This document shows positions 1,627-48,536 of a stretch of 64,000 bases of DNA, one piece after another. The DNA is from a virus. Lineage: Duplodnaviria > Caudoviricetes. The stretch is from positions 32,001-96,000 of IMG/VR virus record IMGVR_UViG_3300043642_000037; one strand, given 5' to 3'. The notes beneath the pieces were generated by a model, which saw only the letters and a program-made list of their open reading frames with translations, was not told where the DNA came from and made no database searches. Within the stretch, counting starts at the first letter, position 1; every line of letters starts with the position of its first letter. The translations under genes were made by a program, and so were the position numbers.

Positions 1627-1671
1627 AAACACCCCACAAAGGGGCATAAGGCATTGAGGAGGAAAACGTCC

Positions 1672-2508
1672 ATGAACGCTTTTGTTGCGGTGTTTCTAGT
1701 CATGTTTATGGCCGCCTGCAGCGCGGACGCGCAGGACGGCTCGGTGCTTCGAGGTCCCCCGGGGCCCGACGGGATGGTTGGTTCCGCAGGACCCGCGGGG
1801 CCCGCGGGGCCCGCGGGTCCTGCCGGGGTCGCTGGTCCCGCGGGCCGACAGGGTGATCACGGCGCACCCGGCGCGACGGGGTCACCCGGACCGCAAGGCT
1901 CGCCCGGCCCCCAGGGCTTTCCTGGGCCTCAGGGACCCCTCGGTCCTGTGGGACCCGCGGGCGCGTCGATCGTCGGCCCGTCAGGACCCACGGGCCTCCA
2001 GGGTCCGCAAGGCCCCTCGGGAACAGGCCCCGCGGGCCCCGCAGGACCTCGCGGCAATGCCGGACCCGCGGGCCCCGCGCCCATCGCGTACGCGAAGGAC
2101 GGTCACCGGCTCGGGCTGTTCGTGGGCAGCGTCAGCTTTCCTACGGCCAGCGTTGGGATGACCGGCTCGTTCGTGACGTTCGGTACCGATGCGTTCTCGG
2201 TGTCGGACGGGCTGTTCGTGTCGATGGCACCGACGCCGATCTACTTCACGCAGGCGGGATGTCTCGGCCAGGCGTTCATCGCGGCGGCCGACGCCGACGG
2301 CGGAATCGCGAACCAGCTCTGGTGGACGACGACGCAGATCTACCAGCGGGGCTCGACCACGGCGACGAACATACAGGCCGCGTCTAAAATGGTCGCGGAC
2401 ACGTGTGTGGGCGTCGGCATTACGACGATCTCGACCTACGTCGCCTTCGTCCTCCCCGTCGCGTACAACATGAAGTCCACGCTGCCGTGGACGATCGTCA
2501 TCGAGTAG
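1672..2508 (+). CDS. Collagen-like lipoprotein
   Basis: GAGGAGG SD; signal peptide ending MAAC (lipobox-like); long Gly-X-Y run; globular C-terminal domain. Confidence 0.85.
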
Positions 2509-2517
2509 CTCACACAA

Positions 2518-2688
2518 ACGTCGCCTTCGTCCTCCCCCGACGAAGCCGCAGGCGAAACCGGGTCGAGTCACCTCCCCCACTGAACGCTCGACCCGTTCCG
2601 GTCGGAACTGCCCTACCGACGCTGAAGAAGCCAGGGCACGTGGAAGGCAGTAAGCGCGTAGGCTATTCCGGCCTGCGCGAGTTGTTAC
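2518..2688 (+). ncRNA. Candidate structured RNA (C-rich-loop hairpins, type II hammerhead-like core)
   Basis: Stems 2525-2531/2539-2545, 2559-2567/2587-2595, 2601-2605/2616-2620, 2609-2614/2633-2638 and 2655-2663/2671-2679; GAAA at 2554-2557; CTGAAGA at 2622-2628. Confidence 0.5.
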
Positions 2689-2693
2689 CAAAC

Positions 2694-2711
2694 CGCCCTG
2701 TTCGGGCAAGG
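2694..2711 (+). promoter_or_regulatory. 18-bp hairpin+SD element, copy 1
   Basis: CGCCCTGTTCGGGCAAGG, 7 nt before ATG 2719. Confidence 0.8.
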
Positions 2712-2718
2712 AGATATT

Positions 2719-3546
2719 ATGCGTATTTCTCATCGCTGTGTTGTTTCGTTTATTGCAGTTCTGTTCATGTTGTTTATTTCATCCATGGCATATGCTGCGG
2801 ACACGGCGGCACCTGCGGGCGCGGCTCAGCCTGTTGGTGCCGCAGGCATCATTGCTGCCATCGCTGCGGGTCTTGCCGCGGTCGTGACAGCCGCTGCTGC
2901 GCTGGTGAGCGCATCCCGCAGTGGCCGCGCAGCCGCGGCCGCGACCGAACATGCCGCGACCGCAACTGCAACTGCAACGGTGGCTGTTGCGCAGTCTGCA
3001 GCTGCCGACGCTCGCGCTGCGGCGGCAGAGACCCGCGCGGCCGCGGCTGCGCAGTGGGCTGATCGCCTTGCTAGCGCGCATCAGGATGGTGTGGTTCTCT
3101 TATTGACTTATCCCGGCGTGGCCAAAAGTTCACGAGAGCTGCTGACGACTAACGGTTGGCGCGTTCTGGCGTACGCGGTGACAGATGCAGAGCTTGCACG
3201 CGGCGAACTGCTTCCGGGCGGTGAGCGTTTGCTTGCGGATGTCGCCGCGGCCGACGCTGTTGTTGTGGAGGGTCTCGATGAGGCACACGTGGCTCAGCTG
3301 GCTGGCATGCGCGACCTTCGTGATCGTGTGCGGGCGGGCGCGTCGGTGTGCTTGTACACCGGAGGTCGTAATTATCGGTATGATCTCACCCTCTGGGGGG
3401 AGTGTGACCAGGGCGTCACAATGCCCGTCACAGTTGAGGCGGCTGTTAGAGGGTCGCTTGCTCGTCGCGAGGCGACTAGTCGTCGTCAGGGTATTCGTCC
3501 AGGTCAGTTAGCCGCCGCGCGAGAGGCCCTGATTCATTGTCAGTAA
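2719..3546 (+). CDS. Ala-rich membrane-associated hypothetical protein
   Basis: Hydrophobic N-terminal segments; preceded by the 18-bp element. Confidence 0.7.
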   Translation: MRISHRCVVSFIAVLFMLFISSMAYAADTAAPAGAAQPVGAAGIIAAIAAGLAAVVTAAAALVSASRSGRAAAAATEHAATATATATVAVAQSAAADARAAAAETRAAAAAQWADRLASAHQDGVVLLLTYPGVAKSSRELLTTNGWRVLAYAVTDAELARGELLPGGERLLADVAAADAVVVEGLDEAHVAQLAGMRDLRDRVRAGASVCLYTGGRNYRYDLTLWGECDQGVTMPVTVEAAVRGSLARREATSRRQGIRPGQLAAAREALIHCQ

Positions 3547-3566: not shown

Positions 3567-4430
3567 ATGAACGATCCATTCGGTGGTTATCAGCCTCAAG
3601 TGCCGCTTCGCACGCACCTCACGATGCAGATTGGTGGGTTCAGCTGCCAGTTGAACATGCCGGTCGCGACGCGCTCGCAGTACGTTGGCGGCGCCGAGGT
3701 GACCTCCCGTCTCGCGCCCTCCGCGCCGGTCGGGGTGCTTCGCGTCGACGACTATCCGGGATGCCCGGCCGACTGGGCTCGCAGCAACCATACGCGAGCG
3801 AGCTACTTCTTCGCGGCCCAGCCGGGCCACATGGTCTGGCTGGACCTGCGCGCGTGCGAGCAGAACACGCATCACGTCGCCGCGCTCATATCGGCGCAGG
3901 GCATCAACGCGATCACCGGCGCGCAGATGACCCCGCCGCCGCGCCTCGAGCAGCGACCGGCGCAGAACTACATCGCCACGACGTCGGTCAGCCCCGGTCG
4001 GTTCTGGCGCGACGGGTTCTGCGGGCGCGACGGACAGACCCGGGAGTTCCTGTTCACCGAGGACGTGGGGCGCGGCGTCGCCGCCCAGGTCATCGGCGAG
4101 GATCGCGTGCATGCGTTCGGCATCGCGCTGTTCAAGTCGGCCCAGCCCAAGCCGCGCCCGGCGTACAGCGGGTATCGCGGTGGCGGCCAGATGATGGGCG
4201 GCCTCGAGGGCGTGACCCGCGGCGCGAGCCGCGGCATGGAGGTCGGCGCCGGTGCGCTGGTCAGCCAGCAGGTGGAGCAGGACAGCAGCGCGCCGGGCTT
4301 CTGGCACGGGGCCCCCGACGCCGTGTTCGTGCTGTACTACGTCAGCGCGGAGGAGCTTGCGGCGATTGTTGGCCACGGCTCGACGCCGCAGTCCGAGGGA
4401 TTCATTCCGGGGCCTGTCGGCAACCCCTGA
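3567..4430 (+). CDS. Conserved hypothetical protein
   Basis: AGGAG SD; motifs VWLDL, GINAITG, QNYI, WRDGF, MEVGAGA recall an uncharacterised bacterial/fungal family (recollection only). Confidence 0.7.
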   Translation: MNDPFGGYQPQVPLRTHLTMQIGGFSCQLNMPVATRSQYVGGAEVTSRLAPSAPVGVLRVDDYPGCPADWARSNHTRASYFFAAQPGHMVWLDLRACEQNTHHVAALISAQGINAITGAQMTPPPRLEQRPAQNYIATTSVSPGRFWRDGFCGRDGQTREFLFTEDVGRGVAAQVIGEDRVHAFGIALFKSAQPKPRPAYSGYRGGGQMMGGLEGVTRGASRGMEVGAGALVSQQVEQDSSAPGFWHGAPDAVFVLYYVSAEELAAIVGHGSTPQSEGFIPGPVGNP

Positions 4431-4494
4431 GGCTGTCTCGAGACGGCTGACCTTCGGGAGAACGATAATCAGAGTCCTGATCGGACTCAAATCA

Positions 4495-4512
4495 CGCCCT
4501 GTTCGGGCAAGG
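4495..4512 (+). promoter_or_regulatory. 18-bp hairpin+SD element, copy 2
   Basis: CGCCCTGTTCGGGCAAGG, 8 nt before ATG 4521; preceded by hairpin GAGTCC-TGATC-GGACTC (4472-4488). Confidence 0.8.
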
Positions 4513-6136: not shown

Positions 6137-6154
6137 CGCCCTGTTCGGGCAAGG
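6137..6154 (+). promoter_or_regulatory. 18-bp hairpin+SD element, copy 3
   Basis: CGCCCTGTTCGGGCAAGG, 7 nt before ATG 6162. Confidence 0.8.
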
Positions 6155-45706: not shown

Positions 45707-48536
45707 AGCCCTCAGGGTCCTTCGCGCCCTGAACGCCACGCGCCAGACGAAGCACGATGTCCCCCAGGCTCTTGAACGTGGAGCCCAAGCTCTGCTCGAG
45801 AGCGTCGAACACCGACTCGCCCACGCGCTCCTTGAGATCCGACTCCTGCATCCACAACGTGAGCTGGACACGCGCGAGATTGTCGACCGCCTTCTCGAGG
45901 TTCGGCAGGTGCTGGCCGACAACCGCGTGAAGCTCCGGCGACTGCACGAGCGTCGCGACGGCGGCGACGTCGAAGATGTCCGGAGGCAGCGCGCTCGCCT
46001 GCTGAAGGAACTGCGGGTTGACCTCCGCGTCCAGCGCGTGCCCGTTGGGGCCGTCGACAGGCATCAAAGCGCCGGGCGCGGGGCCTTGTCCGCCCATCGG
46101 ACCCATGCCGGAAGCGCCCATGCCCTGATCACCCATCGGGTCGCTCATCGGGTCCGCGCCCATGGGCGGCATACCCGGATCTCCACCCATCGAAGCCGGA
46201 TCCATCGGTCCAGCACCCATGCCCGGAGCGCCGCCCATCGGGTCTGCGCCCATGCCTGGAGCGCCGCCCATCGAAGCCGGATCCATCGGTCCGGCACCCA
46301 TGCCTGGAGCACCACCCATCGGATCGCCGCCGGGCGCCCCCGGCATCCCGGGGTTCATCGGCTGGCCCGTGGCGAGGTTCGCCGATGACGGCGGCGCACC
46401 CATCATCTGGGTCTGCGTCGAGGCCGACATCGGTGCTCCACCCGCGATCTCGTGCGAGCGCTGGACAAGCGTGGCGAGCATCTGCTGCTTGTCCTGGAGC
46501 TTCTGCATCTCGGCTTGGATCGCCTGGTCCATCTCCATCGCCGCCAGCTCGACGGGCGACGGAGGGGGTGGGGCCGGAGGCGGACCCATCACGGCCTGTG
46601 CCGCGCCGGCGGCCAGGTCGGGTTCGGGGGCGGGTTCTGCGGAGGCGGGCGGCTTCCGCTTCTTTCCGCCGCCGCGGTCGCCGCTCTTGTCGCCGCCCTT
46701 GTCGCCGCCCTTGTCGTCGTCAGCAGCCAGCTTGTCGACGGCCATCTGCGCGCGCGCGACCTGCTCGGTCGACACGACCCACGCGCGGGCCGAGCCGTCT
46801 CGCGTCGCCTGGTCGAGCAGCATGCCGGCGGCCGCGACCTTGATTCCGTAGTCGGCCGCGACCTTGCGGAGAGCCTGCACGCGACCGACACCGGGACGGC
46901 CGTCGACGGAGAACTGCCGAGCCCCCGCGTCTTTGATCGACACCTTTCGCGCTCCGACCGCGGCGAGCGACGACGACACGCATCGCGCCAGGTCGTGCGC
47001 CGACTGGAACCACGCCCTCTCGTCGAGGCGCTCCCGCAACGGAATCCATATGAAGTCAGGCGGGATGTACACCACGTCCGCGCCCTTCGGCATCACGATT
47101 CCGCCGAGCGGGCTGCGCGGGTCCGTGACCAGCGTTTTTTCCTCGGTGAATCCGCGCACCGCGGTGACCCGCATGCGGCGAACGCCGTCGGCGCCGGTGG
47201 TGACCGACTTGATGTCGAGCGGGATGGTGGCCTGGAACGTCGAGCCCTTCTGGCGCACGAACAGGCCCTTGCCCGCGCGCGGCTGACCGTCGACGTCCTT
47301 GAACAAGCGCTTGTGCAGCGGGCCGGACAGCTCGTCCGCGACCGAGTCGCGACCGACCAGGCGATCCGGCTCGATGTAGTCCCCGTCGCCGAACACGGCC
47401 ACGTACTTCGAGACGTTCCACCGCCTGCGCGTGACGTAGTCGGTCTCGTCGGGCCTGCCCATCGGGTAGACCTTGTTGGCGCTGCGTCCGACGCCGCCGG
47501 GGCGACGCTCGTTGAGCAGGGGGTTGTGGCCCGCGACGGCAGGACGTCGCCCGTACTGCGTTCCCTCCCCGAGGACGTCGATCGGGTCGGAGACAACGAG
47601 CGCCGGACGCTCCTTGCCCGTGGACTCGTAGAGAACGTACACACCCGGCTGGTTCGGCTCGATCCAGCGCTCGTAGGGCTGGACCTGCACGGTCAGGTTG
47701 TGGGACGCGCGGTCGTCGCGAACCGCGTAGCCCTCGCGACGAACCCCGGCGTACGCCTCGCCCGCCTTGTCGCCGAACATGCGATGGAACTCCGACGGGG
47801 TGGTGTCCTTGTCGGCGATCCACAGCGCGCCGCCGAAGCTCTGCTTGGCGGCGACTTTCTCGAGGCCGGGGCGCAAGGCGTGCGACAGCTCCGACATGCC
47901 GTACGCGGCCGCGGCTGCCTTCAGGATGCGAGGATTGTGCGCGAGCACGTGTTGAAAGGCCGACTTGACGCGGTTGGACGCGGACCGCAGAAGAGGCAAA
48001 AGCAACTCGGGCTGCTTGTCGTCGCCCTCCTTGGTCAGGTTACTCGGCGACATGACCTGCTCGAGGTCCAGCATGGCTGACGCGTAGGAGAACCTGCCCG
48101 TGATGGGCGGCACCACGATGTTCCGTATGTCGACGTCCGTGTACAGCGTCTCGGGCGTCTTCACGCCGGTTCCCAGCGACGCCAGCCCGGCCTTGGCTAG
48201 CTCGTCCAGCCACCCCTTGTTGAGGGGGAGGAACATGTTGAGTGCCTTGTGGTACATGATGTCCAGCGGCTTGATCGCGCTGTTGGACATCACGACGGGG
48301 ACGTACAGCGACTGGCCGTGGCGCGAGACTACGAAGGCGCCCACGCCGTAGCCCTTGTCGACGTCGGTCGACAGGACCTTGAAGGTCACCACGTCCGGGA
48401 CCAGGTCCGGGACCCTCTGCGTGAGCAGCTGGTACGCCATCTCGCTCAGTCCGGACTCGAACAAGCTGGTGGCCTGGTCGGGACTTTGGCCCGTTCCTCC
48501 TTGGAGTTGCTGCATGCGCGGGCTGAGCGGGGGCAT
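45693..48536 (-). CDS. Large head-module protein with an M/G/P-rich repeat region
   Basis: 947 aa; GAPGMGAGPMDPASMG repeats (~46130-46360); several K-x-A sites. Confidence 0.75.
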   Translation of the reverse strand: MPPLSPRMQQLQGGTGQSPDQATSLFESGLSEMAYQLLTQRVPDLVPDVVTFKVLSTDVDKGYGVGAFVVSRHGQSLYVPVVMSNSAIKPLDIMYHKALNMFLPLNKGWLDELAKAGLASLGTGVKTPETLYTDVDIRNIVVPPITGRFSYASAMLDLEQVMSPSNLTKEGDDKQPELLLPLLRSASNRVKSAFQHVLAHNPRILKAAAAAYGMSELSHALRPGLEKVAAKQSFGGALWIADKDTTPSEFHRMFGDKAGEAYAGVRREGYAVRDDRASHNLTVQVQPYERWIEPNQPGVYVLYESTGKERPALVVSDPIDVLGEGTQYGRRPAVAGHNPLLNERRPGGVGRSANKVYPMGRPDETDYVTRRRWNVSKYVAVFGDGDYIEPDRLVGRDSVADELSGPLHKRLFKDVDGQPRAGKGLFVRQKGSTFQATIPLDIKSVTTGADGVRRMRVTAVRGFTEEKTLVTDPRSPLGGIVMPKGADVVYIPPDFIWIPLRERLDERAWFQSAHDLARCVSSSLAAVGARKVSIKDAGARQFSVDGRPGVGRVQALRKVAADYGIKVAAAGMLLDQATRDGSARAWVVSTEQVARAQMAVDKLAADDDKGGDKGGDKSGDRGGGKKRKPPASAEPAPEPDLAAGAAQAVMGPPPAPPPPSPVELAAMEMDQAIQAEMQKLQDKQQMLATLVQRSHEIAGGAPMSASTQTQMMGAPPSSANLATGQPMNPGMPGAPGGDPMGGAPGMGAGPMDPASMGGAPGMGADPMGGAPGMGAGPMDPASMGGDPGMPPMGADPMSDPMGDQGMGASGMGPMGGQGPAPGALMPVDGPNGHALDAEVNPQFLQQASALPPDIFDVAAVATLVQSPELHAVVGQHLPNLEKAVDNLARVQLTLWMQESDLKERVGESVFDALEQSLGSTFKSLGDIVLRLARGVQGAKDPEGYATP

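Follow-up and report, generated by a model that had tools for sequence, protein, structure and literature searches.

The stretch of DNA analysed here, hereafter the window, comprises 64,000 nt (bases 32001–96000) of the 156-kb IMG/VR virus record IMGVR_UViG_3300043642_000037, which originates from an uncultured soil phage, has a G+C content of approximately 67 % over the record and is assigned a CheckV completeness of 84 %. Positions 2551–2638 of this window, situated in a 210-nt intergenic gap flanked on both sides by genes of the + strand, harbour an element that, judging by its homologues, is very probably real rather than a chance look-alike, and which can be placed with high confidence in the type II hammerhead lineage. 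Hammerheads are the best-studied small ribozymes. The reading favoured here, and held with moderate confidence, is that the element is a member of a phage lineage of type II hammerheads stabilised by a pseudoknot, acting through the cleavage mechanism proposed below; it probably self-cleaves after C2598, perhaps slowly or conditionally. The ribozyme class is itself known, and what is new is a conserved variant invisible to Rfam, with a conserved C·U mismatch and an insertion that moves among three positions of the core.

The original prediction had proposed a type II hammerhead-like core with a pseudoknot between loop I and the 3′ tail, and direct reading of the sequence recovers all of the motifs that it listed. 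These are arranged as follows, with residues numbered by window position and by hammerhead convention, and with copy numbers referring to the window element plus its ten homologues (introduced below):

2551..2553, + strand: 5′ strand of stem II, GGC, with C2553 as position 11.1; read from the sequence and the same in 11/11 copies.
2554..2557, + strand: core GAAA, i.e. G12, A13, A14 and A15.1; the same in 10/11 copies, with GAUAA in L114.
2558..2596, + strand: stem III hairpin, including positions 15.2 and 16.2; double-sided changes at 11 of the 12 pairs across homologues.
2597..2598, + strand: U16.1 and C17; both identical in 11/11 copies.
2599..2621, + strand: stem I hairpin; paired in 100 % of cells, with three pair types at several positions in three lineages.
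2622..2629, + strand: core strand CUGAAGA (C3–A9, 2622–2628) and an extra A2629 before G10.1; read from the sequence.
2630..2632, + strand: 3′ strand of stem II, GCC, with G2630 as position 10.1; no variation.
2633..2638, + strand: 3′ tail AGGGCA, forming a 6-bp pseudoknot with UGCCCU of loop I (2609–2614); same register in all 11 copies.

Within stem III, residues 2559–2568 pair with 2586–2595 (nine Watson–Crick pairs and one U·G) and enclose a 17-nt loop (2569–2585) that carries CCUCCCCC. C2558 lies opposite U2596, leaving positions 15.2 and 16.2 as a mismatch rather than the usual pair, and A2557 is able to pair with U2597 to give A15.1–U16.1. Stem I comprises C2599–G2621, G2600–C2620, a bulged G2601 and the pairing of 2602–2605 with 2616–2619, with loop I extending over 2606–2615, and the tail starts immediately 3′ of stem II. 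Present in the window are the C3–A9 strand, G12, A13 and A14 together with A15.1–U16.1 and a suitable residue at H17, the type II order of helices, and the pseudoknot. On the basis of hammerhead numbering, the cut is predicted to fall between C2598 and C2599. The three irregularities of which the original prediction had warned, namely the C·U mismatch, the bulged G2601 and the extra A2629, are all real. An alternative hairpin, GUUCC/GGAAC (2595–2599 with 2604–2608), which competes with stem I, was considered and rejected, as it is retained in some relatives and broken in L084.

This anatomy is much like that of RF02276 (Hammerhead_II), in which stem II, GAAA, stem III, UH, stem I, CUGANGA and stem II follow in the same order, and the consensus of which starts gGCGAAAC and ends CUGAUGA.Gc AGCC. 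In common with RF02276 and the hammerheads of Perreault 2011, the element also has a short stem II, pairs its loop I with the tail in a pseudoknot and occupies an intergenic site in a phage; for type II hammerheads a loop I/3′-tail pseudoknot of at least 4 bp is the norm, and phage intergenic sites are typical (PMC3088659). The window element is unlike RF02276 in its C·U at 15.2/16.2, its bulged G, its 10-pair stem III with a 17-nt C-rich loop and its extra core base, and also in lying within a larger conserved cassette that includes a 5′ flank, an upstream hairpin (hairpin 1) and a downstream hairpin (hairpin T).

The frequency of such arrangements was assessed with a relaxed type II descriptor, in which each stem could contain one irregularity and a further base was optionally allowed behind the core (the same relaxations that the original prediction had made). 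In the real 156-kb genome this returns four matches, the element at 2551–2638 being the sole one with long stems. Across 150 dinucleotide shuffles it returns 2.64 matches per genome, as would be expected of a look-alike resting on ordinary intergenic hairpins, and such an origin would also fit with the lack of an Rfam match and with a metagenome search for a window-specific pattern that gave chance matches only. Stems equally good, however, arise in just 0.03–0.04 matches per shuffled genome, and that with the 6-bp pseudoknot left out of the count. Taken alone, the shuffle result is suggestive and not decisive, given the scan of many windows. Because the element is conserved and covaries in its relatives, chance is nonetheless ruled out for practical purposes: ten covarying homologous copies exist, three of which display the standard CUGANGA and a paired 15.2–16.2, and a fortuitous resemblance is effectively refuted.

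These copies were located by way of the neighbouring genes. Contigs L007 and L073–L081 share a homologue of the downstream gene (gene 2719) but have no hammerhead directly upstream of it; in L073–L075 the cassette lies further upstream, ahead of another gene. Via the C-terminal domain of the collagen-like protein encoded upstream of the element, contigs L082, L084/L085 and L089 were found to hold the same intergenic cassette. A covariance model (R1) derived from four sequences, those of the window, L082, L084 and L089, with the hammerhead structure imposed, yields further matches in L073, L074, L075 and L083 at 82–95 bits, a pair of more distant ones in L076 at 33–34 bits (E about 1e-5), and one at L114:1501–1585 at 53.8 bits, this last copy lying at positions 46491–46575 of the IMG/VR record that holds L007. 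There are thus ten homologous copies besides that of the window, seven of them close (L073–L075, L082–L084 and L089) and three distant (two in L076 and one in L114). The cassette was not found in the IMG/VR relative L112, in which a 288-aa gene is present.

Searches by other routes were less productive. A blastn comparison of positions 2400–2800 gave no match in GenBank phages or PLSDB plasmids, and IMG/VR scans with collagen-domain, PcfJ-like and 287-aa proteins returned collagen-repeat matches only, or nothing. A 17-mer scan found nothing in IMG/VR; in GTDB genomes it produced 20 chance matches, the best of which reached 22 bits with R1, lacked GAAA and was rejected. Similarly, a metagenome scan with the window's CTGAAGAAGCC yielded four matches in coding-like sequence, all judged to be chance; this pattern is too specific to the window, since the relatives read CTGAAYGAGCC.

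Pairing was counted over all 11 copies, in an alignment fitted to the structure by a model, and on this basis 91.3 % of cells are standard pairs, versus 30–42 % when the partners are slid. Changes on both sides are seen at 16 of the 27 pairs overall, including 4/6 in stem I and one in the pseudoknot (C–G to G–C, in L076), in addition to those of stem III given above. Stem I occurs with CG, GC and UA pairs, and the GGC/GCC of stem II is invariant in the 11 copies and so without covariation. The same spacing is preserved in all 11: stem II measures 3 bp and stem I 6 bp, loop I is 10 nt long, and the tail contributes 6 nt, which pair with positions 4–9 of the loop. Stem III is always a hairpin, with a sequence that is nearly wholly different between copies (CGGGUCGAG/CUCGACCCG in the window versus UAGGAUAGAGC/GCUCUAUCCUA in L089). 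Comparison with the ten copies therefore supports the type II hammerhead with a loop I/3′-tail pseudoknot, and the covariation in related phages that had been put forward as a check on it is present, with the core kept in the homologues.

Selection on the element can be gauged against the collagen-like gene beside it. At the third codon positions of that gene, identity of the window to its relatives is only 53–70 %, whereas it reaches 90–96 % over the 49 bases of the hammerhead that do not belong to stem III; because these are far more alike than the adjacent third-codon positions, this comparison of sequences demonstrates purifying selection on the element. In the close family, the variable columns are two bases on the 5′ side of loop I, N7 and the last base of the tail; the last of these forms the terminal and weakest pair of the pseudoknot, and the others are free in hammerheads. 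The unpaired core residues GAA, CUGA and C17 show no variation, and the GA of G8 and A9 occurs in every copy, that of the window being shifted by one position.

In the core, a single extra nucleotide, never more, is present in every one of the eleven copies, and it occupies one of three places. In the window (an A) and in L076 (a U) it follows A9, in the seven close relatives it lies between A6 and G8, and in L114 it falls within GAAA. The close relatives have the core strand CUGAAYGA (e.g. CUGAAUGA), and a strict CUGANGA is absent from them; the strand is always 8 nt long in the close family and in L076. The L076 copies read CUGACGA plus an extra U, i.e. CUGACGAU, with GACGGG/CCCGUC as stem I and C15.2–G16.2, and L114 combines CUGAUGA, a UGCAGG/CCUGCA stem I and C15.2–G16.2 with GAUAA in place of GAAA. 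With a strict descriptor (perfect stems and an optional single base after CUGANGA), the L076 copies are the sole matches in approximately 85 kb of the relatives' loci. Against RF02276 one of them reaches 30.7 bits (E 4e-4) and the other 22.6 bits, and the L114 copy reaches 16.5 bits, all of these being below the threshold of 37.

An extra base after CUGANGA is a recognised and tolerated variant. Perreault 2011 (Text S1) gives RNAMotif descriptors that state 'one base allowed after core' (PMC3088659), and the CChMVd (+) hammerhead has an extra A10 with a rate that is only moderately lowered, according to the summary of De la Pena and Flores 2001 in PMC3705267. The CUGAAGA-A-GCC of the window and the CUGACGA-U-GCC of L076 are like both of these, whereas CChMVd is a type III viroid hammerhead with loop–loop contacts, and the window's seven closest relatives, with CUGAAYGA, differ from CChMVd (+) in placing the extra base elsewhere. 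Those seven instead resemble the A6a case of Perreault 2011, and the GAUAA of L114 resembles U13a. Both are treated in that work as rare single cases ('Core nucleotide variation', Figure 5; PMC3088659); unlike them, the insertions described here are alternative states of one homologous lineage, one per copy.

In comparison with its seven nearest relatives, the window displays two adjacent changes, YG to GA, which convert CUGAAYGA to CUGAAGAA. This removes G8 in the register of the relatives and generates a perfect CUGANGA in the other register. Such a two-base change would be predicted by selection on G8 and A9, and is unlikely under decay. The original prediction had left open whether the element is a variant or is degenerate; its irregularities are not random decay, given that the C·U and the bulge are conserved across the close family and that the extra base is a published form.

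In the sequences around the core, three further structures are predicted:

2512..2515, + strand: 5′ strand (ACAC; CCAC in relatives) of a possible closing helix, P0, which would pair with GUGG at 2640–2643; from RNAalifold on eight family members.
2519..2549, + strand: hairpin 1, pairing 2525–2531 with 2539–2545 and with the loop CUCCCCC; from folds, with two inner pairs changing from U–A to C–G among relatives.
2655..2679, + strand: hairpin T, of 10 pairs and with the loop AUUCC; from RNAalifold with covariation and from comparison of flanks.

An outer extension of hairpin 1 (2519–2524 with 2548–2554), itself without variation, would occupy GGCG and with it both G12 and the 5′ strand of stem II. 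The flanks are invariant in the close family, with CACCACAAACGUCGCC on the 5′ side (window 2512–2524) and CGUGG on the 3′ side (window 2639–2643). In some relatives hairpin T is terminator-like, with a U-rich tract after it; in the window this tract is weak, and a terminator scan of the window did not call hairpin T.

A number of observations weigh against a cleaving hammerhead. The covariation rests on an alignment that was fitted by a model to the hammerhead structure, and no variation is seen in stem I, stem II or the pseudoknot across the close family, so that their covariation comes from L076 and L114 only. The C·U at 15.2/16.2, which adjoins the essential A15.1–U16.1 pair, occurs also in six of the seven close relatives (L073–L075, L082, L083 and L089), L084 having U–A plus a bulged A; natural hammerheads mostly have C–G there, and a few U–A (PMC1636495), and no precedent for C·U at these positions was found. 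The bulged G of stem I, two pairs from the core, is common to the close family, and the insertion between A6 and G8 in most close relatives corresponds to a published variant of low activity, the natural A6a case of Perreault 2011 (PMC3088659). Folding of 2516–2645 gives a minimum free energy of −45.6 kcal/mol, versus −35.3 for the best fold with the hammerhead helices plus approximately −9 for the pseudoknot, and the RNAalifold consensus, calculated on the close family only, pairs CGUC (2519–2522) with GGCG (2551–2554), which would block stem II and G12; this consensus also places CCAC/GUGG as the closing helix of the domain. These alternative, non-varying pairs could mark a gated ribozyme or mean nothing. 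At E ≤ 10, Rfam finds no ribozyme family in 401 or 101 bases around the element, returning only noise-level matches (ar14 and miRNAs), nor does it find one in L082, L084 or L089. Lastly, R1 detects only a single copy within the window's own genome, and tblastn of that genome did not find the 282–298 aa gene that follows the cassette in relatives; since the copy is single and its usual downstream gene is missing, constraint on the element may be relaxed in this genome.

The hammerhead search in Rfam that had been suggested as a check thus fails for the window copy, which no model scores: it falls below about 9 bits against RF02276, the gathering threshold of which is 37. At gathering thresholds, nothing is found in the whole window or in the loci of eight relatives. 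This failure is probably due to the C·U mismatch, the bulged G and the long loop of stem III. Across the 156-kb genome RF02276 yields two weak matches elsewhere, of 13 and 12.3 bits, at G000:98377–98441 (+) and G000:19190–19262 (−), both outside the window; these were taken as noise, as control bacterial genomes contain matches at the same level.

A rival reading is a descendant of a hammerhead that no longer cuts, the fold of which is kept as a stable structure at the 3′ end of the upstream mRNA, as a platform for the C-rich loops, or as part of a terminator or attenuator cassette formed by P0, hairpin 1 and hairpin T. This would account for departures from consensus (the C·U, the bulged G and the insertion before G8) being conserved in the close family, for the low activity published for an insertion after A6, for 5′ and 3′ flanks whose invariance a hammerhead leaves unexplained, for a thermodynamic preference for non-hammerhead pairings, and for the lack of any Rfam score for the window and the close copies. 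It sits poorly, however, with the retention of the catalytic unpaired bases (GAA, CUGA, GA and C17) where neighbouring synonymous sites are 30–47 % diverged, with a two-base change in the window that restores CUGANGA in a shifted register, and with three distant homologues that have the standard CUGANGA and a paired 15.2–16.2. Loss of cutting is consequently regarded as unlikely, and a hammerhead that still cuts is preferred.

A different emphasis is suggested by the C-rich loops. The loop of stem III has a run of at least four C residues in 9/11 copies, with CCUCCCCC itself in the window, L076 and L114; its C-rich character is a real, conserved feature. The run comprises 9 C in the L074 copy (at 1196–1283) versus 16 C in the otherwise near-identical L073 copy (at 2039–2133), a difference which, from these two sequences, points to homopolymer slippage. 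In the window CCUCCCCC is found in the loops of both hairpin 1 and stem III, and in L114 both hairpins are C-rich. Hairpin loops with CCUCC or poly-C are known from the sRNAs 6C (Actinobacteria) and alpha-r14 and cuckoo/CcsR (Alphaproteobacteria), and a weak Rfam match to ar14 (2516–2625, 12.8 bits, E 4.3) covers much of the element. The functional unit might, on this evidence, be the paired C-rich loops, binding G-rich or Shine-Dalgarno sites as those sRNAs do, with the likeness to a hammerhead incidental. The ar14 score is nevertheless far under its threshold of 58.8 bits, there is no match to 6C or cuckoo, and the loop of hairpin 1 is CGGCAA in 4/8 members of the close family; unlike the known sRNAs, the loops here lack a significant Rfam match, are borne on stem III of a hammerhead and a neighbouring hairpin, and are not conserved in hairpin 1. 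An invariant core, a covarying stem I and the pseudoknot would also be left without explanation. Such a reading is highly improbable, and the C-rich loops are better regarded as something added to the hammerhead cassette than as a rival to it; the one on stem III could act as an anti-Shine-Dalgarno sequence, could be a decoy that attracts the tail's GGG, or could be the site of a protein.

The genes and the translation signal on either side of the element are as follows:

1654..2508, + strand: upstream gene, encoding a secreted collagen-repeat protein of 284 aa (Pfam Collagen PF01391, E 3e-13).
2695..2713, + strand: small hairpin GCCCUGUUCGGGC, followed by AAGGAG, the Shine-Dalgarno sequence of gene 2719; the same 17-mer occurs elsewhere.
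2719..3546, + strand: downstream gene 2719, encoding 275 aa with a signal-peptide-like N-terminus; homologues 48–77 % identical.

Homologues of the upstream protein are 63–91 % identical across the C-terminal domain; for the product of gene 2719, Pfam gave no family. Comparison of the cassette loci (window 2508–2720, L082:3320–3624, L084:3329–3524, L089:3549–3745 and L075:2507–2699) reveals a fixed order in the close family, running from the 5′ flank CACCACAAACGUCGCC through hairpin 1, the hammerhead, CGUGG and hairpin T to the ribosome-binding site of a conserved gene of 282–298 aa, the protein of which begins MSNKSIAVSPFTM. From this comparison, the window genome seems to have lost that gene together with one or two small genes behind it, joining the cassette to gene 2719. 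The connection to gene 2719 that the original prediction had drawn is therefore plausible in the window genome and is not conserved, as the cassette of the relatives precedes this other gene. Reading frames on both strands (2403–3062 + and 1981–2733 −) overlap the region, and it was considered as coding; this was rejected, since compensated changes in stems and indels in loops are the pattern of an RNA.

The distant copies are more compactly placed, those in L076 ending 15–16 nt and that in L114 14 nt upstream of the next start codon, with the Shine-Dalgarno sequence just past the tail, such that in L076 and L114 the ribozyme occupies the entire spacer between genes. In L076 (and likewise L077) the two hammerheads, at L076:3759–3868 and 4422–4483, flank a 178-aa gene and lie directly after the homologue of gene 2719; placement of hammerheads on either side of a single prophage gene is part of the published picture (PMC3088659). 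The copy in L114 is preceded by a hairpin with a C-rich loop, and the AUG within its CUGAUGA is in frame with the following gene.

Two short repeats were also observed in this region. The 17-mer GCCCTGTTCGGGCAAGG, consisting of a 4-bp hairpin and the Shine-Dalgarno sequence, occurs at window positions 2695–2711, 4496–4512 and 6138–6154, in each case 5–10 nt upstream of the start codon of one of three consecutive + strand genes (2719, 4521 and 6163), and also precedes the homologue of gene 2719 at L073:3966–3982 and in L075 upstream of 4001; from its distribution it looks like a repeated cassette for translation initiation or regulation. The 20-nt sequence ACGTCGCCTTCGTCCTCCCC is present twice, exactly, once at 2438–2457, within the 3′-terminal part of the collagen-like gene (as codons YVAFVLP), and once at 2518–2537, as the loop of hairpin 1 together with its 5′ arm. 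In relatives the hairpin copy is kept and the coding copy is different (e.g. TACGTGGCTGCCGTGCTCCCC, YVAAVLP, in L082); because their coding sequence differs there, the identity is specific to the window genome, and the duplication looks, from the sequences, like a short gene conversion.

As to what the element does, its likeliest function, we infer, is a cut after C2598 that separates the message of the collagen-like gene from the RNA downstream, the rate and effect of this cut being inferred along with it. The element would be transcribed with the + strand operon, following the collagen-like gene, and would adopt a fold in which stems I, II and III meet at a three-way junction and loop I, paired with the six bases after stem II, would hold stems I and II side by side. 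The core (CUGAAGA, GAAA, A15.1–U16.1 and C17) would then bring about a Mg2+-assisted transesterification between C2598 and C2599. Upstream, the mRNA would be left with two hairpins at its end, hairpin 1 and the long one of stem III, and with a 2′,3′-cyclic phosphate; the downstream RNA would begin with a 5′-OH at stem I and include hairpin T as well as the ribosome-binding site used by gene 2719, by which means the two messages would be uncoupled. Since the conserved flanks can form competing pairings, cleavage may, according to the predicted folds, be slow or conditional.

A more speculative proposal, and a rather doubtful one, is that the lineage needs exactly one extra core nucleotide but is flexible as to its position, evolution having moved the insertion whilst the total was kept. 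If this were true, then in combination with the C·U and the upstream CGUC able to capture GGCG, both conserved in the close family, the element would be a gated, conditional cutter, the 5′ product of which carries the C-rich stem III loop and hairpin 1.

Whilst the general picture of hammerheads is unchanged by these findings, they describe a family of phage hammerheads that the Rfam models wholly miss, and surveys based on covariance models therefore undercount variants of this kind. The eleven copies form a natural series for testing the tolerance of the core in hammerheads whose stems I and II are clamped by a pseudoknot. Moreover, their defined position, before the ribosome-binding site in L076 and L114, and between C-rich hairpins and a terminator-like hairpin in the window and the close family, makes them well suited to tests of whether a cut uncouples neighbouring phage messages.

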